Shown here piece after piece: positions 631 through 37,297 of a stretch of 64,000 nt of DNA. Positions within the stretch are counted from its first letter, which is position 1; every line of letters starts with the position of its first letter. Both the position numbers and the translations under genes were made by a program. This DNA is from Eledone cirrhosa (Eukaryota). The notes under the pieces are model-generated. The model was not told the DNA's origin, made no database searches, and was given only the letters and a program-made list of their open reading frames with translations. The DNA lies in contig OZ024742.1 of NCBI GenBank assembly GCA_964016885.1, positions 314,030,001 through 314,094,000 on the forward strand. The letters run 5' to 3'.

Positions 631-850
631 TCTGGGATGGACACACGCGTATAACTTGCTGAGTAAGTTCTGTTTAAATTTCTATAGAAATTCTTGTCTG
701 ATAACTTTAATTTTTGTACCATTTTGTAGAGGGACTGCCAGGTCAAACTTTGATCTGGTCAGTCTCTCAAAATATTCTACGCCTTTAGGCGAAATAGTTA
801 AACAAAAAAAAAAAAAGTTTTTTCTTGTTGAAAAGTCAATATTTTTTTAA

Positions 851-2644
851 ATGGCCGAAGCTTCTTCACCAAAATTCGAAGGAGGAAAGGGGAAGATGAA
901 CTTACAGCTTCCCCCTGCCACTGTCACAGTAGCAGAGGTCAAGAAGAAAGGTCAGCCAGAGGAAGAATTCTCTTCACCTGTTAACCGACAACTTGACGTT
1001 GCCATGGCAACAACCCAAAGAATCAGCAGCAACAGCAACAACAACAACAATGCGACGGACGAAAACAACACCAATAACAATAACAATAACAACAACAACA
1101 AGACCAATAACGGTGACAACAACAACAATGATAACAACAACACCACCAACGACAACAACAACAACACAAACAAACAAAATTTCTCCTTCGCCGAGACGAC
1201 AAGGAAAACCCTCGACTATCTGCCAGTAGATATAACAAAAGCGAAGGAGCTACTGGCGGATGCGAAAAAATATATAGTGTACGGGGAAAATGGTTCATTC
1301 ACAATCCATTCCCCCCCGGAACTAAAAAGCCAGAGACTCCTAAACACGGTCATGTTTAGGACAATCTCGAACAAAAGTAAAAAACCAGCTCAACCATCAC
1401 AGAGCGAGATAGAGCTGGTTTTAAAAGACGTCATGAAGGACATCACCTTCATTCAGAAGGATAGACTCTACGGGAGTCTATCCATTCTCATGAAGGACAG
1501 GGACACAGCAGTGAAACTGTCCATCAAACCAATCACATCCACCGCATACACCTTCTACCCTACGTACATGGGTAGAAGAACACAAAAAATAAAAATCCAC
1601 ACCATCCTGCCGATTATGGACATATGGTGGGTTTTGACAGGTTTTCTGGACCTGGAGGATGACATGCTGGTGTCCATGGGAAAGGCATCGGGTGACGCGT
1701 TCAGTGGAACGAGCCTCGAACTTGTAGTTCAAATGAGGCCCGAAAGGATCGCCCAGATCCCTGAACGCGTCATACTGGATGATCTAACCTTCATCAACAT
1801 TACCGTTGAGGGTAGACGGCCCTCGTGTTACCTCTGCGGAACCAGAGGTCACCTGAGGGCTGTCTGTCCCCAACTTAATAAGAAAACCCCAATCCTGCCT
1901 ACACCACCAACAACTGCACAACCAACACAATCACCACAACTACCACTACAAAAACAATCACCACAGCTCAAACCAAAACAAAACAATGTCCAACCCATCC
2001 CCTCCACTCAAAAAACAAAAACAATTTCCAAAACACCCGTACCGCAAACACAACCCGAAAATATACCCCTCCCCTCCAACGCGGAAGATGACCCTAGTTC
2101 GTCGTCAGACGAGGAGGAGCACTTCCACACAATCAAAAGAAAAAAAAGAAAACACACCTCAGACACACAAATGAAAAAAACCCCTCCCCAAAACATAACA
2201 CTGACACCAACACAAAAGAGCTCACAACAGCAAACAAAAAACACCACACAAAAACAAAAACATGCATACACATACATAAATACAAGAAACAAAAAACTGT
2301 TAAACATTGTGTACAACAACAATCTAATAAAAACACAAGGGCCTAACTTCACCCAGGCAGGGGATTTCCCCCACCTCAAAATGATTAAGGCCCCACAGGA
2401 CACCTATAAAACTTTAAAAAACAATTTTAAAGAGGACGTGGGTCCCCCCTGCGTCGGGCCCATTAACCGCGTCCTCCTAAAAAACTATCCCACCCCCTCC
2501 CCAAACACCCACACAACTCCAAGCTCCCCAACCACACAACACACTGATGCCCCCACACTTCCACAAACCACCACCCCACCCAACAACCCATCCCCCACCC
2601 TAATGGAAATTGTGCAGCCCGATACCCGGGACGCAGAGAGGTAA
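851..2644 (+). CDS. LINE ORF1 protein (Asn-rich N-terminus, probable RRM-like core, one CCHC zinc knuckle, Pro/Thr/Gln-rich tail)
   Basis: 597 aa ATG ORF; CYLCGTRGHLRAVC = CX2CX4HX4C; lies directly upstream of the APE-RT ORF; homologous to the broken ORF1 at 58.7-60.5 kb. Confidence 0.88.
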   Translation: MAEASSPKFEGGKGKMNLQLPPATVTVAEVKKKGQPEEEFSSPVNRQLDVAMATTQRISSNSNNNNNATDENNTNNNNNNNNNKTNNGDNNNNDNNNTTNDNNNNTNKQNFSFAETTRKTLDYLPVDITKAKELLADAKKYIVYGENGSFTIHSPPELKSQRLLNTVMFRTISNKSKKPAQPSQSEIELVLKDVMKDITFIQKDRLYGSLSILMKDRDTAVKLSIKPITSTAYTFYPTYMGRRTQKIKIHTILPIMDIWWVLTGFLDLEDDMLVSMGKASGDAFSGTSLELVVQMRPERIAQIPERVILDDLTFINITVEGRRPSCYLCGTRGHLRAVCPQLNKKTPILPTPPTTAQPTQSPQLPLQKQSPQLKPKQNNVQPIPSTQKTKTISKTPVPQTQPENIPLPSNAEDDPSSSSDEEEHFHTIKRKKRKHTSDTQMKKTPPQNITLTPTQKSSQQQTKNTTQKQKHAYTYINTRNKKLLNIVYNNNLIKTQGPNFTQAGDFPHLKMIKAPQDTYKTLKNNFKEDVGPPCVGPINRVLLKNYPTPSPNTHTTPSSPTTQHTDAPTLPQTTTPPNNPSPTLMEIVQPDTRDAER

Positions 2645-2668
2645 GTGCCTTTTCTCTTCACCACCAAC

Positions 2669-5600
2669 ATGGCTATGCTAAGAGTAGGCTGTTTAAATGC
2701 GCGTGGCCTGGGCTCAACTTGGAAGCAAGCAATGCTTCTAAATGACCTCAGGTCACAACGTATAGATGTGATGGTTATTTGCGAGGCCCGGATCAGCAAC
2801 GTGCGACAGCTGGCCCCCACCTTTGATGACTTTGAGATGCACGCATCTCTCTGTCAGCCCGGAGGTGGGGGTGGAGTTGTCGTTCTGCTGCAAAAACATC
2901 TGGGTCTCGCAACACAGATGGTACATTTGGACCCGGAGGGTCGACTAGTGGTTCTGGACCTTGGCAGTGGTAAAGGCGGAGCGTTTAGGTTGGTAGCCGC
3001 CTACGGCCCTTTCGGGTCAATGCGGCCGGACTTCTTCCATCGTCTGGAGACTTTTCTGGGGACGTCCCGCTCCTTGCTATTAGTGGGGGACTGGAATGGT
3101 ATCCTAGATGCACGCTGGGACTACGTAGGGGCCTGCCCCGATAGAGAGGGGTGTAATAGCCTCAAAGGGTTAATCGGTCGATTTGACCTGGCCGATAGAT
3201 ATCGACTAGATTTTCCGACTGCGCCAACCTGGACTTGGGCAAATCGTAGCGGATCATCTAGGTCGTACCTAGATAGGTTCTTAGTTAGAATTAAGGATAA
3301 GGACTTTTTAAGTTGTCCAAAAATGCGCATGGTTGGCTATTCAGACCACAAATTAGTGACCTGCATGGTCAACCTTGACAGAACTCATAGACAGGGCCCC
3401 GGTTACTGGAAGCTCAACTTGTCCTTGCCGGCAAGTAGAGCCTACAGGAATCGGATTAGTACGTTAGTTAAGGAACGGTTGACTGGAGCGATCGTCAACA
3501 GCAGGTGGTGGGTATCTCTAAAGAGAGAGATTAGAGTAGTCTCGATAGAATTTAGTAAGGTTCTAGCTGCGGATAGGAATAGGAAGGAAAGGGAGCTAAT
3601 AGATAGAGTAGAAGAGGCAATTAGAAGCGGCGACGTGGCCAGAGTGCTAGCGTCGAGAACGGCTTTGAGCCAGTTTTTCGACGCGAAGCACGAAGGCTGC
3701 GTTGTCCGAAGTAAAATACGTGCTCTAGGGAACGAGGGGACCAAAGCTGTTAGCTGGGCCCGCGTGACAGAGGCCAACAGTGGAACTAAATCCACCATCC
3801 GGTCTTTGCGAGACCTGGATGGACGGGCGATTCTTGAGCCTAAGCAGATGTGTGAGGCCTTTCAAAGGCACTTTGCCCGACTGTTCGGGAGGGGCGGGGA
3901 GCCGGTTGGGAACGTGGACTTCGGTCCATACCTCGACGGCCTGCCGCGCCTCTCGGACAGGGAGGCGAAGTCCTGCGAGGAGCCGATTTCGGCCGCTGAG
4001 ATAGAGGACGTGCTGAGCCAATGCGGCAAAAGCAAATCCCCGGGTCTCGATGGTCTTCCTTACGAATTATATCTAGCTATGCCGGACTTGTTCCCCGATC
4101 TCCTCGAGGCGGTCTACTGCAACTGGCAACAGAATGGGAGAATTCCCTGTACTGTGACCAAGGGCGTAGTCACGCTAGTGAGGAAGGACGAGAACAAGGG
4201 GGACGAAATAAGTAACTTCAGGCCCATAACTCTGCTAAATACAGAGTTACAGATTTTGGCCAAGGTGCTAGCAAAGAGGTTGGCGCTTGTCGTGGGCAAC
4301 CTGGTGGGAGATGCGCAGACATGCGCTATCCCGTCCAGGTCCATCCATGACAACCTCCACCTCATGCGATACATCATAGAGAGGGTTGGGAACGAACCCG
4401 GCTTTGGTGGGGCTCTGATCAACTTGGATCAATCTAAGGCGTTCGATAGGGTCGACCATGGTTACCTGGATGCGGTGCTAGCGGCGGCAGGCTTCGGACC
4501 CGTTTTCAGGGGCTGGATCACTGCTATGCACAGCAGCCGCATCTGCTCTAGGGTCAAGGTGAACGGCTACCTCTCGGAGCCGTTCAAAATCGCGCGGTCC
4601 ATCCGACAGGGGTGCCCTCTCTCCTCCCTTCTGTATGTGTTGACTCTCGAGCTACTGCGGAAGTTGGAGTTGTTGCAGGGCATCCCTTTGGAACCGGGAT
4701 TGCGGAAAGCGGTGTCGGCCTACGCCGATGACGTGACAGTAATGGTGTCGACGGCCTCCGAAATCGAGGCGGTCGGCACCTTACTGGAGGAGTACGAAAA
4801 GTTCACAGGGGCTAAGCTGAACCGGGACAAGTCGATCGGTTTGCAACTCGGCACGTGGAGGGGCAGACCGATACCCTCCGATGGCGTCGTCGGACGCTGG
4901 ACGGAGGGCCCGGTGAAGTTGCTCGGGGTCTGGTTCGGACCGGACCTCCAGGTGGAGAAAAACTGGGCGGAGGTTACGAACAGGGTGTTTGCACTGACCC
5001 AGAAGTGGGCCAGTTGCAAACTATCCCTGAAAGGTCGGGCGGAGGTGGCGAACACCTACATAGCGTCCGTCATCTACTACCGCCTGACCGTAGTGCCCTG
5101 CCCAAGGGAAACCCTCACCAAGATGGAGCGCGCGCTCTTCCAATTCCTTTGGAAGAGGCGGGCTCCTATGGTGAGGAGATCCATCTGCTGTCAACACCCT
5201 TCGAAAGGAGGGCTGGGGATGCCGTGGCTAATGATGCGTAAACACGCATTAAGGCTACGGCACCTCTACGTATTCCTCAACGGTCAGCCGGTGTGGGCCC
5301 CGTTTGTGAGGCGAGCCTTCCCACAGCTCGTCTCGCTCACCGAACTGCAATCCTGGGTGAAGCAAAGACCGAGAAAACTGGGCAACTGGCACACTGAGTA
5401 TGCCCAGGCGCTCACGGCTATCTGGCAAGCGGACCCGACTGTCAGTGGAGAATCCACCTCAACATTCTATAGAGGGTTGGTGGCTAGCAGGGGCGACGAC
5501 ACCCTTGGAGAGTCGCTAGGCATGGAGGAGGACGAACTGGCCAGCCTGTTCGGTAGAACTTTCGGCCCGGGACCCATGGACAACTTCCAGAGGTCCCTAG

Positions 5601-6103
5601 CCTGGCAGTGTTACCGGGGGGCTCTGCCCGTTCGAGAAAAGCTCTACAGACACGGGCGCCCGGGCAGGGATCCCGCGAAAAAGATCTGTCCCAGATGCGT
5701 GCGCGACGAGGAAACCGTTGCGCATGCACTGGTACACTGCCCGGGCGTTGCCGATCTGTGGGGCTACGTCGAACGACTGCTGTCGCGTGTGGCGCCGATT
5801 CGATTAACCGCCGAGTCTGTGGTGAACATCAAGCCGCCTCCTCCCTTCAGAAATGAAGCAGAGGCGGTCTTTCTGTGCGTAATAGCCATGATGAAAGAGG
5901 TTGTGTGGTGGACGCGCCTGAAAGGTCTGAGGTCGGGTGACTTTCTCTCCGGCCATCACCTGGTTTACTTCTTCCGATACCACTTCGGAAGAAGAATCAG
6001 GATGGGGAGAGAAGTGCTTGGTCCCAGACAGTTTTATGAAAGGTGGGTGAAAGAAGCGAGAATGGCCCGTGTAAATGGGCCTTCTCTCTACATTGTTCTG
6101 TAG
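2669..6103 (+). CDS. LINE ORF2 protein: apurinic-like endonuclease + reverse transcriptase + C-terminal CCHC
   Basis: APE motifs LNARGL, ICEA, VGDWN, SYLDR, YSDH; RT motifs KSPGLDG, FRPITLLN, LDQSKAFDRVDH, RQGCPLS, YADD, KGGLG; CPRC-EETVAHALVHC. First ATG is at 2669 (the ORF track starts at GTG 2645). Confidence 0.95.
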   Translation: MAMLRVGCLNARGLGSTWKQAMLLNDLRSQRIDVMVICEARISNVRQLAPTFDDFEMHASLCQPGGGGGVVVLLQKHLGLATQMVHLDPEGRLVVLDLGSGKGGAFRLVAAYGPFGSMRPDFFHRLETFLGTSRSLLLVGDWNGILDARWDYVGACPDREGCNSLKGLIGRFDLADRYRLDFPTAPTWTWANRSGSSRSYLDRFLVRIKDKDFLSCPKMRMVGYSDHKLVTCMVNLDRTHRQGPGYWKLNLSLPASRAYRNRISTLVKERLTGAIVNSRWWVSLKREIRVVSIEFSKVLAADRNRKERELIDRVEEAIRSGDVARVLASRTALSQFFDAKHEGCVVRSKIRALGNEGTKAVSWARVTEANSGTKSTIRSLRDLDGRAILEPKQMCEAFQRHFARLFGRGGEPVGNVDFGPYLDGLPRLSDREAKSCEEPISAAEIEDVLSQCGKSKSPGLDGLPYELYLAMPDLFPDLLEAVYCNWQQNGRIPCTVTKGVVTLVRKDENKGDEISNFRPITLLNTELQILAKVLAKRLALVVGNLVGDAQTCAIPSRSIHDNLHLMRYIIERVGNEPGFGGALINLDQSKAFDRVDHGYLDAVLAAAGFGPVFRGWITAMHSSRICSRVKVNGYLSEPFKIARSIRQGCPLSSLLYVLTLELLRKLELLQGIPLEPGLRKAVSAYADDVTVMVSTASEIEAVGTLLEEYEKFTGAKLNRDKSIGLQLGTWRGRPIPSDGVVGRWTEGPVKLLGVWFGPDLQVEKNWAEVTNRVFALTQKWASCKLSLKGRAEVANTYIASVIYYRLTVVPCPRETLTKMERALFQFLWKRRAPMVRRSICCQHPSKGGLGMPWLMMRKHALRLRHLYVFLNGQPVWAPFVRRAFPQLVSLTELQSWVKQRPRKLGNWHTEYAQALTAIWQADPTVSGESTSTFYRGLVASRGDDTLGESLGMEEDELASLFGRTFGPGPMDNFQRSLAWQCYRGALPVREKLYRHGRPGRDPAKKICPRCVRDEETVAHALVHCPGVADLWGYVERLLSRVAPIRLTAESVVNIKPPPPFRNEAEAVFLCVIAMMKEVVWWTRLKGLRSGDFLSGHHLVYFFRYHFGRRIRMGREVLGPRQFYERWVKEARMARVNGPSLYIVL

Positions 6104-6333
6104 GTGAAGAAGTGAAGAGGAAAGGGGGAGCGCCTCCTCTCTGGGCTTCCCCCGCGAAAAGAGTTGCACACTTTTCGGGGGTATGTGCAATCCCCAACAC
6201 GCCCCCTCCCTTTTGAGGACTTTTATTGTTATATTATTATTGTTATTCCTTTTTTCTTTACTCGATTTATGTAAACTCCCCCACTGTGTAAATGTCCCCT
6301 TCTTTTGTGCCCTCGTGGCAAATAAATAGAAAT

Positions 6334-6334
<1 letters not shown>

Positions 6335-6397
<63 letters not shown>

Positions 6398-6440
6398 TAG
6401 CTCCCTTTCCTTCCTATTCCTATCCGCAGCTAGAACCTTA

Positions 6441-6501
<61 letters not shown>

Positions 6502-6534
6502 CATCCATCCATCCATCCATCCATCCATCCATCC

Positions 6535-6592
<58 letters not shown>
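6335..6592 (+). repeat. (TATC)n/(CATC)n array with a 43-bp unique insert, between A1 and A2
   Basis: Visible tandem repeats at 6335-6397 and 6441-6592. Confidence 0.9.
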
Positions 6593-6593
<1 letters not shown>

Positions 6594-7681
6594 CTCACCG
6601 GACAACCGGTGTGGGCCTCGTTTGTGAGACGAACCTTTCCCAGACTCGTCTCACTCACCGAGCTGCAATCCTGGGTCAAGCAAAGACCGAGAAAACTGGG
6701 CGCCTAGCACACTGAGTGTGCCCAGGCGCTCACCGCCCTCTGGCAGGCGGATCCGGTTATCAGTGGAGACTCCACCGCAACATTCTATAGAGGGCTGGTA
6801 CGCAGCAGGTGCGACGACGCCCTCGGAGAAGCCCTAGACATGGAGGAGGACGAACTGGCCAGCCTGTTCGGTAGGACATTCAGCCCGGGACCTATGGACA
6901 ACTTCCAGAAGTCCCTGGCCTGGCAGTGCTACCGAGGGGCTTTACCCGTTCGAGAAAGGCTCTACAGACACGGGCGCCCGGGTAGGGACCCCGCCAAAAA
7001 GATCTGTCCCAGATGCGTGTGCGACGAGGAAACCGTTGCACACGCATTGGTACACTGCTCGGGCGTAGCCGATCTGTGGGGCTATGTCGAACAACTGCTG
7101 TCAAGGGTGGGACCGATCCGGTTGACCACCGAGTCTATTGTAATGATCAAGCCGCCCCCCCCTTCAAAGATGAAGCAGAGGCGGTGTTTCTGTGCGTAAT
7201 AGCCATGGCGAAAGAGGTTGTATGGTGGACGCGTCTGAAAGGACTGAGGTCAGGCACCTTTCTCTCTGGCCAACAACTGGTCCGTTTCTTCCGTTATCAT
7301 TTCGGAAGAAGGATCAGGATGGAGAGAGAGGTGCTGCACCCCAGCCGTTTCTATGAAAGGTGGGTGAAAGTGGCGAGAATGGCCCGTGTGAATGGGCCTT
7401 CACTCTACATCAGACTATAGGTGAGGAAGATGAAAGACCAAGGGAGCACCCCTTCTCTGTGCTCCTGAGGAGAAGGGTTGCACACTTTTTTCGGGGGTGT
7501 GTGCGACCCCCAAGGCGCCTCCTCTCTATTGAGGATTTTGTTAAAAATCTTATTTTTTGTTATATCTTATTTTATTTTTATATTTTGTTATTGCCTCCTC
7601 CTTATTGAGGACGCCTTTTTGTGTAAACTCCCCCTTTGTACTTGTCCCACTTTTGATGCCCTAGTGGCAAATAAAAGAAAC

Positions 7682-7762: not shown

Positions 7763-9886
7763 AGAGTTACAGATTTTGGCCAATGTGCTAGCAAAGAGGT
7801 TGGCGCTTGTCGTGGGCAACCTGGTGGGAGATGCGCAGACATGCGCTATCCCGTCCAGGTCCATCCATGACAACCTCCACCTCATGCGATACATCATAGA
7901 GAGGGTTGGGAACGAACCCGGCTTTGGTGGGGCTCTGATCAACTTGGATCAATCTAAGGCGTTCGATAGGGTCGACCATGGTTACCTGGATGCGGTGCTA
8001 GCGGCGGCAGGCTTCGGACCCGTTTTCAGGGGCTGGATCACTGCTATGCACAGCAGCCGCATCTGCTCTAGGGTCAAGGTGAACGGCTACCTCTCGGAGC
8101 CGTTCAAAATCGCGCGGTCCATCCGACAAGGGTGCCCTCTCTCCTCCCTTCTGTATGTGTTGACTCTCGAACTACTGCGGAAGTTGGAGTTGTTGCAGGG
8201 CATCCCTTTGGAACCGGGATTGCGGAAAGCGGTGTCAGCCTACGCCGATGATGTGACAGTAATGGTGTCGACGGCCTCCGAAATCGAGGCGGTCGGCACC
8301 TTACTGGAGGAGTACGAAAAGTTCACAGGGGCTAAGCTGAACCGGGACAAGTCGATCGGTTTGCAACTCGGCACGTGGAGGGGCAGACCGATGCCCTCTG
8401 ATGGCGTCGTCGGACGCTTGACGGAGGGCCCGGTGAAGTTGCTCGGGGTCTGGTTCGGACCGGACCTCCAGGTGGAGAAAAACTGGGCGGAGGTTACGAA
8501 CAGGGTGTTTGCACTGACCCAGAAGTGGGCCAGTTGCAAACTATCCCTGAAAGGTCGGGCGGAGGTGGCGAACACTTATATAGCGTCCGTCATCTACTAC
8601 CGCCTGACCGTAGTGCCCTGCCCAAGGGAAACCCTCACCAAGATGGAGCGCGCGCTCTTCCAATTCCTTTGGAAGAGGCGGGCTCCTATGGTGAGGAGAT
8701 CCATCTGCTGTCAACACCCTTCGAAAGGAGGGCTGGGGATGCCGTGGCTAATGATGCGTAAACACGCATTAAGGCTACGGCACCTCTACGTATTCCTCAC
8801 CGGACAACCGGTGTGGGCCTCGTTTGTGAGACGAACCTTTCCCAGACTCGTCTCACTCACCGAGCTGCAATCCTGGGTCAAGCAAAGACCGAGAAAACTG
8901 GGCGCCTGGCACACTGAGTGTGCCCAGGCGCTCACCGCCCTCTGGCAGGCGGATCCGGTTATCAGTGGAGACTCCACCGCAACATTCTATAGAGGGCTGG
9001 TACGCAGCAGGTGCGACGACGCCCTCGGAGAAGCCCTAGACATGGAGGAGGACGAACTGGCCAGCCTGTTCGGTAGGACATTCAGCCCGGGACCTATGGA
9101 CAACTTCCAGAAGTCCCTGGCCTGGCAGTGCTACCGAGGGGCTTTACCCGTTCGAGAAAGGCTCTACAGACACGGGCGCCCGGGTAGGGACCCCGCCAAA
9201 AAGATCTGTCCCAGATGCGTGTGCGACGAGGAAACCGTTGCACACGCATTGGTACACTGCTCGGGCGTAGCCGATCTGTGGGGCTATGTCGAACAACTGC
9301 TGTCAGGGGTGGGACCGATCCGGTTGACCACCGAGTCTATTGTAATGATCAAGCCGCCTCCCCCCTTCAAAGATGAAGCAGAAGCGGTGTTTCTGTGCGT
9401 AATAGCCATGGCGAAAGAGGTTGTATGGTGGACGCGTCTGAAAGGACTGAGGTCAGGCACCTTTCTCTCTGGCCAACAACTGGTCCGTTTCTTCCGATAT
9501 CATTTCGGAAGAAGGATCAGGATGGAGAGAGAGGTGCTGCACCCCAGTCGTTTTTAAGAAAGGTGGGTGAAAGTGGCGAGAATGGCCCGTGTGAATGGGC
9601 CTTCTCTTTACATAAGCCTGTAGGTGGAAAAGAGGAAGGAACGAGGGAGCACCCCCTCTCTGTGCTCCTGAGGAAAAGGGTTGCACACTTTTTTCGGGGG
9701 TGTGTGCGACCCCCCAAGGCGCCTCCTCTCTATTGAGGATTTTGTTAAAAATTTTATTTTTTGTTATATCTTATTTTATTTTTATATTTTGTTATTGCCT
9801 CCTCCTTATTGAGGACGCCTTTTTGTGTAAACTCCCCCCTTTGTACTTGTCCCACTTTTGATGCCCTAGTGGCAAATAAAAGAAAC

Positions 9887-9887
<1 letters not shown>
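7762..9887 (+). mobile_element. 5'-truncated Tx1 family A copy A3 (RT to 3' UTR)
   Basis: Starts at the position equivalent to A1 4242; RT motifs QGCPLS and YADD; premature TAA at 9555-9557; flanked by (TATC)n at 7682-7762 and 9888-9962. Confidence 0.93.
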
Positions 9888-9962
<75 letters not shown>

Positions 9963-11093
9963 ATTTTCTTTCAGTCTATTTATCTATCTGTCTGTATGTT
10001 TGTCTGTATTTAACTATGAGTTTCTATTTTTATCTTTCCTTTCTTATTGTCGTTCTCTTGCCTTCGTGCATTGTATCATATCTACGTATATAAAAGCATC
10101 TATTCATTTCATTATGAAATATATAGACTTGAAATATTAAAATGGCTTCTTGCGTTGCCCAGTTAATATATAACCTTTATTTAATACGATACACTTCATT
10201 ATAGAAATAATTTATAGTTTGATCGAAAATATTGAAACAATTGAAACAAAAGATCAAATGAACGCAAAACAAATAAACTACAATTATCGTTTATGTTTCT
10301 GATGAATCTTCCAGTTCTATTGGCAAAAACAAAAGACTAAATACAATTCATAGTGTCGTGTCCTATTTTCAAACTAACTGCGGTCATAAAAATAGATAGA
10401 AAGATTTTTAAGATAGCAATTAATATAATACGTTTTAAGCACTAAACAAAGGTCATATTTTCAGAAATATTACCATCATATGGTTTTTCAAACCAAAAAT
10501 GTTTAATCTGACAATGTCTATACATAAGACATTATATGATTAAAATAATTAGATAGAACAATTTCCATTCCTTATAATATAATTATTTAACTTCTAAATT
10601 TTCTGAACATATCAGTGAATTGTATATATAAAAAGAAGCGATAATAACATTGTGCAAAAATTGTCGTCTTCTCACGCATATTTAGATATAACAGCATGGC
10701 AAAGACGTCTCAAGGGAAATTATAAGAGTGTATGATTTACTCGAGTAATATCCCCATGCTTTTGTCATGTGGGCGAAAAGTCTAAGAATAATATAAGATG
10801 TCTTCGGTAATCCTTTGAGGGCAGATGGTTTAACATTAGATATATCTTGAATGCATAGAAAAAGACCACAGAAAAATAGAAACCCACATGCAAAGCACTC
10901 ATAAAGACACAAAGGTATATATATATATATCCAACAGATCAGGCTTGATCCCTAAGAGAGATCAGCCAAGCTCTTGGATATTACCCAACCATCTTGCTCG
11001 AGGTATTTCCCTGGGTTTCCTGCCGATTGGTTTTGCTCGTAAAATTCTGTCTTTATACGAATATCCGTGTATTTGTGTTCGGATAAAGTGTGC

Positions 11094-26824: not shown

Positions 26825-28752
26825 AGAGTCAATACGTACAAGAGGGACGAGAGGGGACATCCTTGGCGGACCGAGCGCATGATGTTGAACGGTTCCGAAA
26901 GGTGACCGTTCACTCTCACCACAGAGCAGATGTCGCTGTGCATGGCAGCGATCCAGCCTCTGAAGACGGGCCCAAAACCAGCCGCCCTCAGGACTGCCGC
27001 TAGGTAACGATGGTCGACCCTATCGAAAGCTTTCGACTGATTTAAATTGGTCAAGGACCCACCCGTGCCAGGTTCTCTAGCTACCCTCTCTACGATGTAT
27101 CGCATGAGGTGGAGGTTGTCGTGGATGGATCTGTCGGGAATGGCGCATGTCTGCGCCTCTCCCACCAGAGCACCAACGACAAGCGCCAACCTCTTTGCTA
27201 GCACCTTGGCCAAAATCTTGAACTCTGTGTTTAGCAGAGTTATGTGCCTGAAATTATCTATGTTATCCCCCTTGTTCGGATCCTTTCTCAGCAGTGCCTC
27301 CGCTCCTCGACTCACAGAGCTGGGAATTCTCCCGTTCTGTTGCCAGTTGCAGTAGACGTCCGCCAGGAGGCCTCCGAACAAGTCTGGCATCTGTACGTAA
27401 ATTTCATAGGGCAGACCATCCAAACCAGGCGATTTACCTCTTGTGCAGCCAGTCATTGCCTCCCTTACTTCAGCGGCTGTTATCGGCTTTTCACAACACT
27501 CCGCCTCAGTGGCTGAGAGCCGCGGCAGTCCGTCGAGGTAGACACTAAAGTCCATCCCTCGACCCGGCCCACCGCTACCCTCGAACAGCTGAGTGAAGTG
27601 TCGCGGAAAAGCTTCACGCATTTGCCCGGGATCGAGTAGAATGCGCCCGTCGTGGTCCACCAAAGACCGGATAGTGGCTTTGTTGCTACGACGCTCCTCC
27701 GCCACTCGCGCCCATTTAACGGCTTTCGTCCCCTCGTGTCTGAGAGCACGCACCCTAGCTCTGACAACGCAGCCTTCGTGCTTTGCATTGAAGAATTGGT
27801 CAAGGGCCAATTTCGCCGCAAGCACGTCGGTCGCGATGCCTTTACTAAGCGCCTCGTCTAATTTTCTAACTAGTTCTCCCTCTGCTCTATTTTTCTCTAT
27901 TGCTAAAGCCTTACTAAACCTAATGGATTCTATTCTAATCGCTCTTTTCAGAGCAAACCACCACTTGTTGTCTCTGTAGGCCTTGCGCGCTGGTAAGGAC
28001 GCGTTTAGCTTCCAGTAGCCGGGTCCTCGTCTATGAAGCCTATCTAAGTCAAGCACACACATCACGAATTTGTGGTCCGTGTAACTGACTATCTTGAATT
28101 GTGGACAGCCTATGCTACACCTATCTATTTCCTTACAACATACTCTATCTAGATATGATCTGGATGACCCTATGCGATTTGTCCAAGTCCACATTGGCAC
28201 ATTCGGGAAATCCAATCGGTACCTGTCAGACAGTTCAAAACGCCTGAGCAGGTTGGTGAGGCTCTTGCACCCTCCACCCCTATCCGCTAATCCCACACAG
28301 TCCCAGCATGCATCTAAGATTCCGTTCCAGTCGCCCTTTAATACTAAAGAGCGGGACGTTCCAAGAAAGATCTCCAGACGCCGGAAGAAATCAGGCCGCC
28401 TTGCTCCTGTCGGGGCATAGACGGCCACTAGCCTGAAAGCTTGCCCGTCTCCGCTGGTCACGTCCAGCACCACCAACTTACCCTCTGGGTCCAGGAAGAT
28501 GGCCCGTATGGCGAGATCCAAACCTCTCCGAAAAAGCACAGCAACTCCTTCCCCCGATCCAGGACGGCTGGGAGATGCGTACAAATCGTAGCCGCCGAAG
28601 ATGGGTGCCAAGGCCCGTGCTTCGGAGATTCTGGTCTCGCTGATGGCCACTACATCTATGTTTAGTGACCTGAGGTCGTTGAGCAGGTGACCCTGCTTCC
28701 ACGACGACCCCAAGCCACGCGCATTTATGCTGCCTATTCTGAGTGAGGTCAT
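26825..28752 (-). pseudogene. B1 ORF2 (APE + partial RT), truncated before YADD
   Basis: MTSLRIGSINARGL...RQGCPLSSLLYVLTL then jumps to the 3' UTR; also an in-frame 48-nt deletion near 27970. Confidence 0.9.
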
Positions 28753-28787
28753 GTTTAAAATGGAGTGGAAAAGATGGGAAAGACCAC

Positions 28788-30897
28788 TTCCGTACTTTTC
28801 GTAGAGGAAGGATGGTTTTTCCATCCCTTTTCACTTGATCGTCTGGTTGAAGCGTCCCTTCGGCTGGTCGTCGGCTCTTCTATGAGTATGTCCGAATATA
28901 CTCTTCGGTTGAGAATCCCTCCTAGGTCTCTGAAATCACCAACTGCGTTGGGGAATTTCGTTTTAATGTTTGTGTATTTTTTCTGTGCTATTTTTACCAG
29001 TCTTATGTTCGTTGGCGTTTGATTGGTGCTGGTATTATGTAGTCGTGCTGTGAAATGTCTGTGTGTTCAATTATGTAAGTTTCTTGTTGTGTGTATTTAT
29101 TGCCGTGCATTTGTGGGTGGGGTGTGGTTCTGCTATTTTCTGTCGTTGTTGCTGGGTGTGTGTGTTTTATTGTTGTGTTTGCGATGTTGGTGCTTGTGGT
29201 GGTGGTGTTGAAGGTGTTGTTGTTGTTGGCGGTGGGGTTGTCGCCGGTGGTGATGGTGGTGCTAGTGTGGGTGGTGATTGTGTTGGTGGTGTTGCTGCTG
29301 TGAGTCTCTTTGCAGTAGCCTTTACCCTTTTTTCATTTCTTTCCTCCCTTTTCGAAGGCGACGATGCTCTGCTTCTGCGTTTGTGCCTTCTTACGACCTT
29401 TTGCCATCCCTCTCCCACCTCACACTCCATGTCTGATTCTGTGAGGTCGGGGAGGGGTACCAGCTCCACTCTTTCACTTGTTGTTGTTGGTGATGTTTGC
29501 AGTGGAATCTCTGTTGCAGCTGCATTTGGTATTACTGTTGCTGTTGTTAATACTTCCACTGCTGCTGCTGTTCTTGATTTCCGTGGTGTGGGTATGGGTG
29601 CCACGGACCTATCGTTCCTGGTTGCCGCTTGTCTTGTTGCTGATAGCCGTGGAGCCGGTTTCGGATGGAGGGGGGTTTTCTCCTTTCTCAGGGTCTTCTC
29701 GTTGCAGAAGGCCCTGAGGTGAGTCTTCGATCCACAGCGAAAGCATTTCGGGCGTTTGCCCTCAACACTTATGGGCAGTTGAGTGCCGTTATCGAAGTCT
29801 ATCACATCCGGGATAGCTTCGATGCATTCCTGGTTGGTTTGGATTAATATCTCAATGGAGGTGCCGACCCAATCTTCTCTTACTTTTTTCTGTACTTGCA
29901 GTACAGTTGTTTTGTCCTCGATTCCGACGAGGACAGACGCGGCCAGCCAAGAAGGGTCATCCGGGGGGGGGGGGGTCAGTTTGACCCTCACAATTTTTGG
30001 CCCGCAGTAGGAGGGCACCAACACCATTTCCTCGCTACTTAGGGTCACTAAGGATTGAGCCTTTGCCTCCTGGGGTGTGGCAAAATGCACGTCTACGGTG
30101 GCATATTTCTTCCCTCGAGTGATATGCTTTTTCCGCTGCCACACAGACCCTAAGGCTTTTTGTATTTGAGCCTCTGTGGCTCTTTCAACCCTACGGGATT
30201 TTGTGCTTACTGTACGGTACGTGACCGTACAGTGCTGTTGGGTTTCGAAACATTTTTCGGCTGCCTTGCAGATTGCTCGGTGTCCGGTTTTCGTCACCAT
30301 CTTCTTCGCTTCCTGTAATTCCTCATTTGTTATGAGGATGGTTTCCAGGTTCTTTGCGATACCTGCAAACGATATTGGTTTTTCGTTGCTGCTGTTGTTG
30401 TTGTTGTTGTTGTTGTCGTCAGAGCTGCTGTTACTTTTGTTGTTGCTGCAGGTACTACGACTACTGCCGCCGCCGCTGTTGCTGTGGTTGATGTTGTTGC
30501 CGCTGCTGCTGTTGTTGTTGCTGTTGCTGCTAATGCTGTTGTTGTTTATGCTGCTGCTGATGCTGTTTCGGCTGCTACTGTTGTTTTCCCTGTCACTGTT
30601 GCTGCTGCTACTGTTATTACGGCTGCTACTGCTACTATTCATTACGTCAGACGAATGAAATGGGTTTTCGTATTTTCCGCACACCTTTTTCGTAGTTGTC
30701 GTCGTCGTCATCGAGAAATGTTGCACGCTTTGTACGTGATTTTTCTTTACTGGCGTCGCTTGCGAAAGAGAAGGGAGGGAGAGAGACACATTTAGAGAAG
30801 GGAGGGAGAGAGACAATCTTCTCTCTGCTGTAGTAACGATTGAGGAAGAAGACGGAATGAGTGGCAGTGACCTATGAAAATTCTTTTTCGTAGCCAT
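28788..30897 (-). pseudogene. B1 ORF1 (Ser/Asn-rich N-terminus, CCHC knuckle), premature stop at 29167
   Basis: MATKK...CFRCGSKTHLRAFC; collinear with B2 ORF1. Confidence 0.85.
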
Positions 30898-31141
30898 GTT
30901 TTTTTTTGTTTTAAAATAAATATTGGGCACAAAACCCCAATAAGCGGTTATTTAACCCCGAAGGGCCAAATAACGGGCAGAAAGACCCCTCTCACGAGGA
31001 GGAGGGTGTTTTTGTCTACAATTTGGTTAAAGTTTTAAACAATTTACAATTGTTATAGCGGTCAAAATTTACAATACCTTACAGAGCCGAGCCTCCGTCA
31101 ACCATGGCATTCAATAATAATAATAATAATAATAATAATAA

Positions 31142-31237
31142 TTGTTTCTACTTTTGGCACAAGGCCAGCAATTACCCAGTGCATTACTGGTACTTTATTT
31201 TATCAACCCCGTAAGGATGAAAGGCAAAGTTAACCTT
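31142..31237 (-). mobile_element. 5'-truncated SINE family 1 copy embedded in (AAT)n between B1 and B2
   Basis: SINE 3' half with AAT repeats on both sides. Confidence 0.85.
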
Positions 31238-31247
31238 AATAATAATG

Positions 31248-31290
<43 letters not shown>

Positions 31291-31549
31291 TTTCTTTATT
31301 AACCACAAGGGTTTACATAAAGTAGACATTAAGGACAGTGCAGGACAATGCAGGACGGTACAAATGGGCATTTCTGCGTGTAAAAAACAAAAACAGAGGA
31401 TGTAACAAAAATAACAATGAAAATAACAATGAAAAATTCCCCAATAGGGGGGAGACTTCGGAGGGACATTTGTGGAGAAATCCCAGTAAAAAGCCACAAT
31501 GACCCTGACCACCAAGGCAAGTGCCCTCTCCCAGTTTTCCACCTTTAAT

Positions 31550-34500
31550 TTACAGATATATACTCAGAGTAGGCCCATTCACTCGGGCCATTCTTGCTTC
31601 TCTCACCCATCTTTCAACAAAATGCTGGGAAGAGAGCACTTCCCTCTCTACTCTGATTTTCCTTTTCAAATGAAATTTGAAAAAGTCAATCAGAGCATCA
31701 CCGAAGAGGTAAGTGCTCGTCTTCAGCCCTTTCAAACGTGTCCACCATACTATCTCTTTCACCATGGCCACCAGGCAGATAAAAATTGCCTGCCCTTCCC
31801 GGCTAAAGGAGGAGGGCGGGGCAATCCTCACGATGGACTCAGATGATAGCCGGATCCGTCCTAAACGCGACAGCAGGTGTTCGACATAAACCCACAAGTC
31901 AGCAATTTTCGGACACTGGACGAGTGCGTGCAGGACGGTTTCGTCGCCCTGCGCGCATCTCGGACATGCCCGGCTGACGGCACCTCCATGCCTGTAGAGT
32001 TTATCCCGAACTGGCAAGGCTCCTCGGTAGCACTGCCAGGCCAGAGATTTCTGGAAGTTGTCCATAGGCCCCGGCCCGAAAGTTCTTCCGAAGAGATTGG
32101 CTAGTTGATTTTCGTCGACGCCTAGAGTTTCCCCAAGTAGGTCGTCGCTCTTCCCCTCCACTAAACCTCTATAGAACGCCGAGGTGGAGTTTCCACCGAT
32201 CACATTGCCCGATTGGTCGAGGGCTGTGAGCGCCTGAAGACATTCCAGTCTCCAGGCGCTCCCTCTCGGTCTTCGCTTGACCCAGGACTGCAGCTCCGTC
32301 AAGGAAACGAGCTGGGGAAAAACGCGTCTAGCAAACGGCGACCACACCTGATCACTGTCGAGGAAGAGGTGGAGATGTCGTAGCCTGAGCGCGTGCCTGC
32401 GCATCATCAGCCACGGCATGCCCAGCCCTCCACGTAGCGGGTGTTGACAACAGATGGACCGCCTGACCATCGGAGCACGTCCCTTCCACAAAAAGCGAAA
32501 GAGCAAACGCTCCAACGCAGTCAGGCGAGGCTTAGGACAAGGTACGACGGTTAGGCGGTAGCAGATGACAGACGCGATGTACGCGTTAACCACCTCCGCT
32601 CGACCTTTCAGGGATAGCTTCCTCTCCGCCCATTTCTGGGTGAGAGAAGCCACCCTGCTCGTCACCTCGTCCCAGTTTTTGTCCGTCTGGAGGTCCGGAC
32701 CGAACCAGACCCCTAGCAATTTAACCGGTCCGTCCGTCCAGCGCCCGACGACGCTGTTGGACGGCATGGACCTGCCTCTCCAGGTGCCGAGCTGCAGGCC
32801 CACCGACTTTTCCTGGTTGATCATTGCTCCTGTCACCGCTTCGTATTCTCTTAGTGTAGTGCCGATCGCCTCGATGTGTTTGGCGTTCGACACCACTACG
32901 GTGACATCGTCCGCATATGCTGACACGGATCTTCCGCATCCTAGTTCGCGCGGGACTCCCCTCAACGTCTCCAGTTTGTGCAGTAATGGCTCGAGAGTCA
33001 ATACGTACAAGAGGGACGAGAGGGGACATCCTTGGCGGACCGAGCGCATGATGTTGAACGGTTCCGACAGGTGACCGTTGACTCTCACCACAGAGCAGAT
33101 GTCGCTGTGCATGGCAGCGATCCAGCCTCTGAAGACGGACCCAAAGCCAGCCGCCCTCAGGACTGCCGCTAGGTAACGATGGTCGACCCTATCGAAAGCT
33201 TTCGACTGATCTAAATTGATCAAGGACCCACCCGTGCCAGGTTCCCTAGCTACCCTCTCTACGATGTATCGCATGAGGTGGAGGTTGTCGTGGATGGATC
33301 TGTCGGGAATGGCGCATGTCTGCGCCTCTCCCACCAGACCACCAACGACAAGCGCCAACCTCTTTGCTAGCACCTTGGCCAAAATCTTAAACTCTGTGTT
33401 TAGCAGAGTTATGGGCCGGAAATTGTCTATGTTATCCCCCTTGTTCGGATCCTTTCTCAGCAGTGCCACCGCTCTTCGGCTCACAGAACTGGGAATTCTC
33501 CCGTTCTGTTGCCAGTTGCAGTAGACGTCCGCCAAGAGGCCTCCGAACAAGTCTGGCATCTGTACGTAAAGTTCATAGAGCAGACCATCCAAACCAGGCG
33601 ATTTACCCCTTGTGCAGCCAGTCATTGCCTCCCTTACTTCAGCGGCTGTTATCGGCTTTTCGCAACACTTCGCCTCAGTGGCCGAGAGCCGCGGCAGTCC
33701 GTCGAGGTAGACACTAAAGTCCATCCCTCTACCCGGCCCCCCGCTGCCCCCGAACAGCTGAGCGAAGTGTCGCAGAAAAGCTTCACACATTTGCCCGGGA
33801 TCGAGTAGCATGCGCCCGTCGTGGTCCACCAAAGACCGGATCGTGGCTTTGTTGCCACGACGCGCCTCCGCCACTCGGGCCCATTGAACGGCTTTCGTCC
33901 CCTCGTGTCTGAGAGCACGCACCCTAGCTCTGACAACGCAGCCTTCGTGCTTTGCATTGAAGAATTGGTCAAGGGCCAATTTCGCCGCAAGCACTTCGGT
34001 CGCAATGCCTTTGCTAAGCGCCTCGTCTAATTTTTTAACTAGTTCTCCCTCTGCTCTATTTTTCTCTATTGCTAAAGCCTTACTAAACCTAATCGATTCT
34101 ATTCTAATCGCTCTTTTCAGAGCAAACCACCACTTGTTGTTGACGATGGCCCCCGTCAACGCCCGCTTAACTAGTTCGCTAATCCGGTCTCTGTAGGCCT
34201 TGCGCGCTGGTAAGGACGCGTTTAGCTTCCAGTAGCCGGGTCCTCGTCTATGAAGCCTATCTAAGTCAAGCACACAGGTCACGAATTTGTGGTCCGTGTA
34301 GCTGACTATCTTGAATTGTGGACAGCCTATGCTAGACCTATCTATTTCCCTACAAAATACTCTATCTAGATATGATCTGGATGACCCTATGCGGTTTGTC
34401 CAAGTCCACATTGGCACATTCGGGAAATCCAATCGGTACCTGTCAGACAGTTCAAAACGCCTGAGCAGGTTGGTGAGGCTCTTGCACCCTCCACCCCTAT

Positions 34501-34969
34501 CCGCTAATCCCACACAGTCCCAGCGTGCATCTAAGATCCCGTTCCAGTCGCCCACTAACACTAAAGAGCGGGACGTTCCAAGAAAGGTCTCCAGATGCCG
34601 GAAGAAATCAGGCCGCCCTGCTCCTGTCGGGGCATAGACGGCCACTAGCCTGAAAGCTTGCCCGTCTCCGCTGGTCACGTCCAGCACCACCAGCTTACCC
34701 TCTGGGTCCAGGAAGATGGCCTGTATGGCGAGATCCAAACCTCTCCGAAAAAGCACAGCAACTCCTCCACCCGATCCAGAACGGCTGGGAGATGCGTACA
34801 CATCGTAGCCGCCGAAGATCGGTGCGAAGGCCCGTGCTTCGGAGATTCTGGTCTCGCTGATGGCCACTACATCTATGTTTAGTGACCTGAGGTCGTTGAG
34901 CAGGTGACCCTGCTTCCATGACGACCCCAAACCACGCGCATTTATGCTGCCTATTCTGAGTGAGGTCAT
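31550..34969 (-). CDS. LINE ORF2 protein (APE + RT + CCHC), family B, intact
   Basis: 1139 aa; INARGL, ISET, VGDWN, SYLDR, YTDH, LDQSKAFDRVDH, RQGCPLS, YADD, CPRC-DETVLHALVQC; aligns end to end with A1 ORF2. Confidence 0.95.
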   Translation of the reverse strand: MTSLRIGSINARGLGSSWKQGHLLNDLRSLNIDVVAISETRISEARAFAPIFGGYDVYASPSRSGSGGGVAVLFRRGLDLAIQAIFLDPEGKLVVLDVTSGDGQAFRLVAVYAPTGAGRPDFFRHLETFLGTSRSLVLVGDWNGILDARWDCVGLADRGGGCKSLTNLLRRFELSDRYRLDFPNVPMWTWTNRIGSSRSYLDRVFCREIDRSSIGCPQFKIVSYTDHKFVTCVLDLDRLHRRGPGYWKLNASLPARKAYRDRISELVKRALTGAIVNNKWWFALKRAIRIESIRFSKALAIEKNRAEGELVKKLDEALSKGIATEVLAAKLALDQFFNAKHEGCVVRARVRALRHEGTKAVQWARVAEARRGNKATIRSLVDHDGRMLLDPGQMCEAFLRHFAQLFGGSGGPGRGMDFSVYLDGLPRLSATEAKCCEKPITAAEVREAMTGCTRGKSPGLDGLLYELYVQMPDLFGGLLADVYCNWQQNGRIPSSVSRRAVALLRKDPNKGDNIDNFRPITLLNTEFKILAKVLAKRLALVVGGLVGEAQTCAIPDRSIHDNLHLMRYIVERVAREPGTGGSLINLDQSKAFDRVDHRYLAAVLRAAGFGSVFRGWIAAMHSDICSVVRVNGHLSEPFNIMRSVRQGCPLSSLLYVLTLEPLLHKLETLRGVPRELGCGRSVSAYADDVTVVVSNAKHIEAIGTTLREYEAVTGAMINQEKSVGLQLGTWRGRSMPSNSVVGRWTDGPVKLLGVWFGPDLQTDKNWDEVTSRVASLTQKWAERKLSLKGRAEVVNAYIASVICYRLTVVPCPKPRLTALERLLFRFLWKGRAPMVRRSICCQHPLRGGLGMPWLMMRRHALRLRHLHLFLDSDQVWSPFARRVFPQLVSLTELQSWVKRRPRGSAWRLECLQALTALDQSGNVIGGNSTSAFYRGLVEGKSDDLLGETLGVDENQLANLFGRTFGPGPMDNFQKSLAWQCYRGALPVRDKLYRHGGAVSRACPRCAQGDETVLHALVQCPKIADLWVYVEHLLSRLGRIRLSSESIVRIAPPSSFSREGQAIFICLVAMVKEIVWWTRLKGLKTSTYLFGDALIDFFKFHLKRKIRVEREVLSSQHFVERWVREARMARVNGPTLSIYL

Positions 34970-35004
34970 GTTTAAAATAGAGTGGAAAAGATGGGAAAGA
35001 CCAC

Positions 35005-37054
35005 TTACCGTACTTTTGGTAGAGGAGGGATGGTTTTTACATCCCTTTTCACTTGATCGTCTGGTGAAGGGACCGTTGAATCGTCCCTTCGGCTGGTCGT
35101 CGGCTCTTCTAAGAGAATGTCTGAGTATACTCTTCGATTGATGGTTCCTCCTAGGTCCCTGAAATCACCAACTGCGTTGGGGAATTTCGTTTTAATGTTT
35201 GTGTATTGTTTCTGTGCTATTTTTAGCAGTCTTATGTTAGTAGGCGTTTTGATTGGTGCTGGTATTATGTAGTCCTGTTGTGAAATGTCTGTGTGTTCAA
35301 TTATGTAAGTCATTAGTTTCTTGTTGTGTGTATTTATTGCCGTGCATTTGTTTTTCTGGGGGTGGGGTGTGGTTCTACTATTTTCTTGTCGTTGTTGCTG
35401 GGTGTGTGTGTTTTGTTGTTGTGTTTGCGATGTTGGTGCTTGTGGTGGTGGTGTTAAAGGTGTTGTTGGCGGTGGTGATGGTGGTGCTAGTGTGGGTGGT
35501 GATGGTGTTGGTGTTGTTGCTGCTGTGGGTCTCTTTGCAGTAGACTTTACCCTTTTCTCATTTCTTTCCTCCCTTTTCAAAGGCGACGATGCGCTGCTTC
35601 TGCGTTTGTGCCTTCTTACGACCTTTTGCCATCCCTCTCCCACCTCACACTCCATGTCTTATCCTGTGAGGTCGGGGAGGGGTACCAGCTCCACTCTCTG
35701 ACTTGTTGTTGGTGATGTTTGCACTGGATTCTCTGTTGCAGCTGCATTTGGTATTGCTGTTGTTGTTGTTAATATTTCCACTGCTGCTGCTGTTTTTGAT
35801 TTCCGTGGAGTGGGTATGGGTGCCACGGACCTATCGTTCCTGGTTGCCGCTTGTCCTGTTGCTGGTAGCCGTGGAGCCGGATTCGGAAGGAGGGGGGTTT
35901 TCTCCTTTCTCAGGGTCTTCTCGTTGCAGAAGGCCCTGAGGTGAGTCTTCGATCCACAGCGAAAGCATTTCGGGCATTTGCCCTCAACACTTATGGGCAG
36001 TTGAGTGCCGTTATCGAAGTCTATCACATCCGGGATAGCTTCGATGCACTCCTGGTTGGTTTGGATTAGCATCTCAATGGAGGAGCCGACCCAATCTTCT
36101 CTTACTTTTTTCTGTACTTGCAGTACAGTTGTTTTGTCCTCGATTCCGACGAGGACAGACGCGGCCAGCCAAGAAGGGGTCATTCCGGGGGGGGACGTGG
36201 GTCAGTTTGACCCTCACAATTTTTTGCCCGCAGTAGGAGGGCACCAACACCATTTCCTCGCTCCTTAGGGTCACTACTGATTGGGCTTTTGCCTCCTGGG
36301 GTGTGGCAAAAAGTACGTCTACGGTGGCATATTTTTTGCCTCGGGTGATGTGCGTTTTCCGCTGCCACACAGACCCCAAGGCTTTTTGTATTTGGGCCTC
36401 TGTGGCTCTTTCCACCCTACGGGATTTTGTACTTACTGTACGGTACGTGACCGTACAGTGCTCTTGGGTTTCGAAAAATTTTTCCGCTGTCTTGCAGATT
36501 GCTCGGTGTCCGTTCTTTGTCACCATCTTCTTCGCTTCCTCTAATTCCTCATTTGTTATGAGGATTGTTTCCAAGTTTTTCGCAATACCTGCAAATGAGA
36601 TTGGTTTTTCTCTGCTGTTGTTGTTGCCGTCAGAGCTGCTGGTACTTTTGTTGTTGCTGCAGGTACTACGACTACTCCCTCCGCCGCTGTTGCTGTGGTT
36701 GTTGTTGGTGTTGCTGGTGATGCTGTTGCGGCTGCTACTGTTGTTTTCATTGTCACTGTTGCTGTTGTTATTACGGCTGCTACTGCTATTATTCCTGACG
36801 TCAGACGAATGAACTGGGTTTTCGTATTTCCCGCACACCTGTTTCGTCGCTGTCGTCGTCGTCGTGGAGAAACCTTGCACGCTTTGCACGAGACTTTTCT
36901 TTTCTTTCGTCACTTGCGAAAGAGAAGGGAGGGAGAGAGACACATTTAAAGAAGGGAGGGAGAGAGACAATCTTCTCTCTGCTGTAGTGATGATTGAGGA
37001 GGAAGAAGACGGAATGAGTGGGAGTGACGTATGAAATTTCTTTTTTGTAGCCAT
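35005..37054 (-). pseudogene. B2 ORF1, disrupted
   Basis: Three consecutive ORF pieces; +1 frameshift in the G8 run at 36187-36194 and TAA at 35659 (TCA in B1); CFRCGSKTHLRAFC knuckle. Confidence 0.85.
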
Positions 37055-37297
37055 GTTGTTTTTTGTTTAAAATGAAATTTTGGGTACAAAACCCCAATAA
37101 CTGGTTATTTAACCCCGAAGGGCCAAATAACGGACAGAAAGACCCCTCTCACGAGGAGGAGGGTGTCTTTATCAACAATTTGGTTCAAGTTTTAAACAAT
37201 TTACAATTGTTTTAACGGTTAAAAATTACTATACCTTACAGAGCCGAGCCTCCATCAACCATGGCATTCAATAATAATAATAATAATAATAATAATA

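Follow-up and report, generated by a model that had tools for sequence, protein, structure and literature searches.

Long interspersed nuclear elements (LINEs) of the Tx1 clade have a separate open reading frame 1 (ORF1) with a CCHC zinc knuckle, and LINEs of the Dong/R4 group have a restriction-like endonuclease at the C terminus and no apurinic/apyrimidinic endonuclease (APE) domain. Among APE-type Tx1 LINEs, related families have been described on different microsatellites: Kibi on (TC)n and Koshi on (TTC)n in teleosts, and crocodilian Tx1 elements on (TTCC)n and (TTTC)n (PMC4494074, PMC3812793). Switching of targets between sister families thus has precedent in the clade, and a 2013 review called the choice of microsatellites by APE-type LINEs not well understood (PMC3812793). 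Here we describe two LINE families, A and B, in 64,000 nucleotides of the cephalopod Eledone cirrhosa (assembly GCA_964016885.1, contig OZ024742.1, positions 314,030,001 to 314,094,000, forward strand; hereafter the window), a microsatellite-rich stretch of animal DNA. Their copies lie in (TATC)n and (ATT)n, respectively, which are not the targets of Kibi or Koshi; in contrast to the pyrimidine-only repeats of the teleost and crocodilian families, both contain a TpA step. We lean, by a modest degree, towards a reading in which A and B choose their repeats in two steps, a retuned endonuclease (EN) nick followed by pairing between the element RNA and the nicked primer.

Other described systems frame this comparison. 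TRAS1, SART1 and R1Bm of the R1 clade are also repeat- or site-specific APE-type elements, in which the EN hairpin, the Tyr98/Asp130 region and RNA–target annealing are reported to affect site choice (PMC2868851, PMC1919474, PMC7265360). Exchanging the EN retargets SART1 to TRAS1 sites, and a target-like AGG tail lifts SART1 accuracy from 36% to 76% (PMC7265360). In contrast to these elements, the A1 EN is nearer to the L1 EN than to that of TRAS1, and A and B carry no poly(A), which SART1 insertions do (PMC7265360). Human L1 ORF2p shares an 11-residue EN hairpin with A and B, nicks T|A (the bar marks the cut) and primes by tail pairing, but has a weak TTTT|A preference, a poly(A) tail, and Asn118 and Arg155 at the positions of Phe/Thr and Tyr/Cys in A/B (PMC8565326, PMC1950540). 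Dong/R4 elements on (TAA)n use the same duplex repeat as family B (PMC3812793); A and B carry an APE domain and thus fall outside that group. Both families have the ORF2 anatomy of the L1/Tx1 group, with an N-terminal APE domain, a central reverse transcriptase (RT) and a C-terminal CCHC motif, and the knuckle CX2CX4HX4C is present in ORF1 of A1, B1 and B2. The Tx1 label is putative and follows this anatomy and the general traits of the clade, as database homologues were returned unnamed or as ‘pol-like’.

The copies of family A in the window, and the repeat tracts around them, are laid out as follows.

592 to 631, plus strand: (TATC)n repeat tract on the 5' side of A1
632 to 6334, plus strand: A1, full-length family A element, ORF1 and ORF2 frames both open
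851 to 2644, plus strand: A1 ORF1, 597 amino acids, CCHC knuckle at residue 326
2669 to 6103, plus strand: A1 ORF2, 1144 amino acids, with APE endonuclease, RT (YADD at 685) and C-terminal CCHC
3011 to 3013, plus strand: A1 EN codon 115 (Phe), candidate specificity residue
3233 to 3265, plus strand: A1 EN hairpin loop, residues 189–199 (L1 Thr192–Ser202)
6335 to 6593, plus strand: (TATC)n separating A1 from A2
6389 to 6443, minus strand: exact 55-nucleotide inverted copy of A1 3553–3607, within the TATC tract
6594 to 7681, plus strand: A2, 5'-truncated, TATC on both flanks
7763 to 9887, plus strand: A3, 5'-truncated mosaic, TATC on both flanks
9888 to 9993, plus strand: (TATC)n on the 3' side of A3
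58430 to 58525, plus strand: (TATC)n on the 5' side of A4
58526 to 64000, plus strand: A4, second A subfamily with a different 5' untranslated region (UTR), frameshifted, extending past the window end; EN from 60574

All four of these copies (starts 632, 6594, 7763 and 58526) begin immediately after (TATC)n, and A2 and A3 abut the repeat even though they are 5'-truncated at different points. A1, A2 and A3 form one stack, so that the A copies in the window are not all independent; A1 and A4 are two independent loci, separated by 52 kb and differing in their 5' UTR, each of which starts after TATC. Perfect arrays of at least 12 bp make up 0.78% (TATC) and 0.38% (ATT) of the window; because they fill so little of it, chance would hardly place two independent loci of each family next to its repeat. 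Of the nine TATC array stretches, eight touch an A copy; the array at 21983–22062 is the sole one in the window with no neighbouring A element. Insertion regenerates the repeat, and copies therefore stack head to tail.

Within the stack, A2 is nearer in sequence to A4 than to A1. A3 shows 10 differences from A1 until A1 position 5276, beyond which it is A2-like, the switch falling exactly at the truncation point of A2, and it has a short A4-like patch near the end of ORF2; this mosaic structure could stem from template switching, conversion or an assembly effect. A1 lacks one proline codon at 4651 that is present in A4 and B.

Searches of contigs and reads with the A body recovered a large, diverse family in all four runs. 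The target association of family A is that of the window copies; the 24 loose ends listed, out of about 3800 in the reads, were mostly related-family sequence. Left out of the analysis were two wastewater runs that shared 0.05 of the words. Loci related to this pair were sought in two further sets, with 98 pattern matches and none confirmed in metagenome_contigs, and 39 and none confirmed in genome_contigs.

Family B occupies the minus strand, its features given here from the 5' side.

37270 to 37304, minus strand: (ATT)n on the 5' side of B2, common to a head-to-head Dong/R4-like element
31289 to 37269, minus strand: B2, full-length element of family B with ORF1 split into three pieces
31550 to 34969, minus strand: B2 ORF2, 1139 amino acids, open frame
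34625 to 34627, minus strand: B2 EN codon 115 (Thr)
34373 to 34405, minus strand: B2 EN hairpin loop, residues 189–199
31237 to 31288, minus strand: (ATT)n on the 3' side of B2
31143 to 31236, minus strand: 5'-truncated short interspersed element (SINE) with a B-like 3' hairpin loop (CTTGT), flanked by two ATT tracts
31113 to 31142, minus strand: (ATT)n on the 5' side of B1
26750 to 31112, minus strand: B1, 94.6% identical to B2, with internal deletions of 48 bp and 1630 bp
26703 to 26749, minus strand: (ATT)n on the 3' side of B1

Both B copies in the window (starts 37269 and 31112) have (ATT)n immediately before their 5' end, and their 3' end is again in (ATT)n. The deletions in B1 (window 26825/31364–32994) remove 1630 bp from ORF2 and the 3' UTR, together with another 48 bp within ORF2, and leave the last 75 bp and the ATT tail in place.

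For B we extended the association beyond the window by comparing two restriction-site-associated DNA (RAD) runs (X13 and X14) and two contig sets with the 5' tip of B2 and 18 bases of the adjoining repeat. The RAD runs carry the same species label as contigs that share 0.73–0.79 of A1's words, and may come from the same or a close species. Of the read depth at the B 5' tip, 97.5% and 97.2% in the two runs continues into ATT (37272–78), and 90% and 89% reaches the 18th base. In X13 the raw depth of 586 within the tip becomes 572, then 555 and 528, along the repeat; the corresponding values in X14 are 515 and then 501, 483 and 460. Because the reads carry several linked variants, several B copies contribute to them. 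Contigs in which the B 5' end is 7 nucleotides shorter run straight into ATT on each of two different flanks; the 5' ATT is thus more than a fixed part of the element. Low-agreement loose ends at 37180 and 37221–37226 (AATT sites) were set aside as likely library chimeras. Tx1 families have been treated as target-specific when >20% of flanks are of one repeat type (PMC4494074); family B exceeds this level, with two of two copies in the window and about 97% of 5' tip read depth.

The initial annotation had presented the ORF2 proteins of A1 and B2 as a closely related, intact pair with different targets. The ORF2 coordinates and the loop strings that it quoted are all correct, and the difference in target holds, with four of four A copies on TATC (two of them 5'-truncated) and two of two B copies on ATT. 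The end-to-end alignment is likewise as described: 770 of 1145 columns of the global alignment are identical (67%), with 18 identical blocks of 10–16 amino acids. Identity is 144/236 in the EN (61%), 148/234 in the linker, 230/301 in the RT (76%), 132/190 in the post-RT region and 116/184 at the C terminus. Both proteins match Pfam PF03372, PF00078 and PF13966, for the APE, RT and zf-RVT domains (the last below the curated cut-off in A1), and both keep the catalytic residues N10, E39, D141, N143, D202, D226 and H227, and YADD. ORF1 is less alike, that of A1 being 27% identical to that of B1 across 208 columns. The word ‘intact’ fits A1, in which both frames are open, and the ORF2 frame of B2; it does not fit B2 ORF1, which is broken twice (pieces 36074–37066, 35659–36201 and 35005–35658), and B2 ORF2 reads PGLDGLLYE, with leucine for the proline kept in A1, B1 and homologue P0001 (PGLDGLPYE).

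‘Closely related’ proved to be too strong. A and B are fixed for different residues at 64 of 242 EN positions, and synonymous divergence (dS) is about 1.1 overall. The nearest database relatives of B are 72–85% identical to it where aligned, and A is about twice as distant from B as these relatives are, in every domain; sites changed only in A or only in B number 42/18 in the EN, 35/16 in the linker, 31/19 in the RT and 69/20 in the post-RT region. The ratio of non-synonymous to synonymous change (dN/dS) is 0.18 in the EN and 0.21 overall, and is flat over the domains; EN changes private to A or to B, counted against each of four distant outgroups, are 21/17, 16/14, 18/14 and 18/15, with no EN excess on A. 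Acceleration or positive selection specific to the EN was thus not seen, in a test that is weak with dS near saturation. By sequence, the two families are sister lineages of long standing. A derivation of A from B is unsupported, as the EN tree leaves the order of A, B and four relatives open. A large set of unnamed ORF2 homologues on long contigs (proteins P0002–P0044; 35–40% identity) mostly keeps YAPN or YASN at EN positions 112–115.

Over the whole ORF2, the best solved relative is L1 ORF2p (profile E value of 5.5e-208; 697 bits, versus 208 for R2). The model of the A1 EN has a template modelling (TM) score of 0.83 to the L1 EN and 0.69 to the TRAS1 EN, and in a Foldseek ranking L1 ENs take ranks 1–12 and the TRAS1 EN rank 40. 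AlphaFold models of the A and B ENs (pLDDT of 92.7 and 92.5) have the same secondary structure and do not separate the two. The hairpin at residues 189–199 aligns with L1 Thr192–Ser202, in the same position and with the same length of 11 residues, and is, by alignment with 2v0s, the loop that has been grafted in L1. It is nearly unchanged between the families, as the initial annotation had noted: A1 and B2, with different targets, differ at 2 of 11 residues, and A1 and A4, with the same target, at 4 of 11. Variation inside family A exceeds that separating A1 from B2, and on this ground we rejected the hairpin as the main target switch. Its sole consistent change is serine or glycine in A and isoleucine in B at residue 194, aligned with L1 Pro197 at the minor-groove tip, a position that also varies among relatives (D, S, I, N and V).

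Outside the hairpin, residue 115 is our candidate for specificity, not a proof of it. It aligns with L1 Asn118 in a loop that reads YGPF in A and YAPT in B. Phe occupies this position in A1, in A4 and in a further, A-like contig variant (YSPFGAE, loose end at 3023); B1, B2 and all four nearest relatives have Thr, and most of the distant homologues have Asn. Thr in the relatives is no sign of ancestry, given that the EN tree is unresolved and that every domain of A is about twice as distant. In the L1 EN–DNA crystal, the minor-groove base contacts are made by Pro197 and His198, that in the major groove is made by Asn118, and Arg155 binds the phosphates at +2 and +3 (PMC8565326). In R1Bm, mutation of Tyr98, which sits where L1 and APE1 have Asn, alters the preference for the +2 base (PMC1919474); if that Asn is Asn118 of the YAPN motif, residue 115 would correspond to R1Bm Tyr98. 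At the position of L1 Arg155 (residue 152), A has Tyr and B has Cys; fixed differences between the families fall at the positions aligned with L1 Asn118, Arg155 and Pro197, and in the loop near Lys70. That retargeting took a few residues is not readable from the sequence, because 64 EN positions are fixed for different residues and there is no EN-specific acceleration; residue 115 does lie in a loop that the initial annotation had flagged, and at a known base-reading position of other APE endonucleases.

The 3' ends of A and B are alike, with a hairpin of 4 bp and a 5-nucleotide loop (TGCC-CTCGT-GGCA in A1, AACC-CTTGT-GGTT in B2), AATAAA, AGAAA and then the repeat, without poly(A). A SINE with the hairpin loop of B is followed by ATTAT in 13 of the 15 copies found, and three independent copies in unique DNA have duplications of 13–16 bp that start T|ATTAT; the conserved ATTAT would lie on the primer side of the predicted nick. 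If B-type enzymes move this SINE, about six bases may be enough for insertion. The inverted piece of A1 offers a second view of priming: its left junction is a 9-nucleotide match to (TATC)n, the only 9-nucleotide GATA run, and the longest, in the 5703 positions of A1. This is as expected from a TATC 3' end that primed on the RNA by pairing, and suggests such an event. Two SINE copies are successive insertions at the same ATTATGTATTAA site (window 19290–19527).

In the two-step reading that we prefer, the EN would first nick at the TpA of a core common to both targets, GAT|AG for A and AAT|AA for B, or RAT|AR, a nick position that is itself predicted. On the strand that would be nicked the targets are GATAG and AATAA; a cut at TpA in each, as made by L1, would place their first differences at +2 and −3. 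A near-unchanged minor-groove hairpin is unsurprising, because the targets share this predicted core. By homology, preference would be tuned outside the hairpin, mostly by residue 115, with help from residue 152, the 61–66 loop and the hairpin tip at 194. Transcripts would run beyond AATAAA into the downstream repeat and end in UAUC or AUU units, and only nicks whose free 3' end pairs with this tail would be primed efficiently. Each step has a precedent, in the EN exchange and target-like tail of SART1 (PMC7265360) and in L1 with a grafted loop, which is reported to integrate still at T-tracts (PMC1950540). The initial annotation had offered residue changes or tail pairing as the cause of retargeting; both components have a place here, and the either-or is probably false, as both are likely to act.

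Several observations weigh against this reading. The phase of the A nick is taken from analogy, and a cut at A|G would also fit the 3' junctions and would remove the shared core. Residue 115 is one of 64 positions that are fixed for different residues, and in a comparison of two lineages each of these would track the target. The putative link between the SINE and B is drawn from the hairpin and tail; only 2 of the 15 SINE ends lie in long ATT arrays, while B reads mostly show 18 nucleotides of ATT, a disparity that this reading does not fully explain. With a nick at the start of the duplication, the +2 base would vary among the three SINE sites (C, A and C). DNA-templated repair is another possible source of the inverted piece. 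In one contig, B is joined at 37204 to sequence other than ATT, and contig depth drops much faster over ATT than read depth (in X6 to about 72%, 52% and 32% of the tip value), which is expected because contigs break in repeats.

Among the alternatives, the one that survives best, although we consider it unlikely, is that the EN alone sets the target: the A EN would nick (GATA)n and the B EN (AAT)n through many small changes on the DNA face, and the 3' repeat would be duplicated target. The SART1/TRAS1 EN exchange changes integration specificity (PMC7265360), target choice has been described as mainly set by the endonuclease (PMC4494074), and the fixed differences at the DNA-contacting positions listed above are in line with such tuning. 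However, the EN shows no acceleration by either dN/dS or the outgroup counts, in vitro nicking by L1 and R1Bm is reported to be looser than integration (PMC1950540, PMC1919474), and the inverted piece starts at a 9-nucleotide repeat match.

Less probable again is the converse, in which both ENs nick TpA loosely and a copy that landed in TATC gained a UAUC read-through tail, so that the target is inherited through the RNA. This would fit the hairpin counts, the lack of EN acceleration, the ATTAT on the primer side of the predicted nick and the 9-nucleotide match of the inverted piece. Yet it predicts frequent switching between repeats, whereas TATC is retained by both A subfamilies, which differ in their 5' UTRs, and ATT by about 97% of B tip reads, in a genome that abounds in AT, AC, AG and TATG repeats; it also leaves aside the lineage-specific departure of residue 115 from the Asn of L1 and most distant homologues. 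If it were true, exchanging a few tail bases would retarget the element, a natural RNA-guided LINE. That there is no targeting, the repeats being the elements' own tails or 5' ends and the clusters arising by template jumping, by tandem duplication or because copies survive where DNA is rich in repeats, is very improbable: the single A1–A3 stack, the A3 switch at the 5' end of A2 and the adjacency of B1 and B2 do reduce six copies to fewer events, and passive accumulation is mentioned for Drosophila Waldo-A and Waldo-B (PMC3812793), but A1 and A4 both follow TATC 52 kb apart with different 5' UTRs, A2 and A3 abut it at different positions, and B tip reads of several variants, as well as contigs with the shorter 5' end, run into ATT.

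The neighbour of B2 at 37305–40486 (plus strand) is a 5'-truncated RT element with a CCHC motif and a C-terminal RPD..D..K motif, Dong/R4-like and without an APE domain, which lies head-to-head with B2 on the same AAT tract. The PD..D..K motif we take to be that of a restriction-like nuclease. The 3' end of the element is in AAT/AAG, and its insertion is opposite to that of B2; two unrelated nucleases thus appear to use one repeat in opposite orientations. At 40568–40730, a duplicate of the Dong-like 3' end and a SINE 3' tip of about 25 nucleotides both lie within AAT tracts. A splice-donor-like G|GTAAGTG overlaps the ORF1 stop in A1 (2640–2647), A4 and B2 (35009–35001), and an AG|GT lies at or just past the ORF2 end (A1 6103, B2 about 31544, likewise A4); no joint of the two was among the 15 joints listed from A-body reads. 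Elsewhere in the window, a large inverted repeat at 15265–16049 (809 columns, 87% self-match) is probably a MITE-like or foldback element, and smaller palindromes occur at 17982–18132 and 22141–22268. An ORF of 443 amino acids at 43308–44639, with RT-like motifs and no Pfam match, lies between 375-bp inverted repeats (43074–43448 and 45299–45671) and is possibly Penelope-like.

A repeat annotation of Octopus vulgaris reports 13 recently active L1-Tx1 and 5 Dong-R4 families; nowhere in its main text does ‘target’ occur (PMC13282606). By titles and the opening parts of abstracts, we found no Tx1 element targeting TATC or ATT in the literature; Repbase, Kojima and Fujiwara 2004, and the supplements and Fig. 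3 of PMC4494074 may list such elements. What the present analysis adds is a read-based test for B, a candidate residue, the duplications at SINE sites and the inverted piece. As a natural pair for testing, which the initial annotation had proposed, A and B remain a fair system, provided that another copy supplies B2 with a functional ORF1; with differences at a quarter of EN positions, the two make a less sharp pair than first thought. The pair is a test case for a known kind of targeting, not a new principle. How far site choice is split between EN read-out and RNA–primer pairing matters for engineering site-specific insertion, and the pair offers colinear proteins of equal length, targets that would differ by one base beside a predicted common nick core, and one named candidate residue at a position implicated in R1Bm and L1, so that a clean 2×2 swap is possible.

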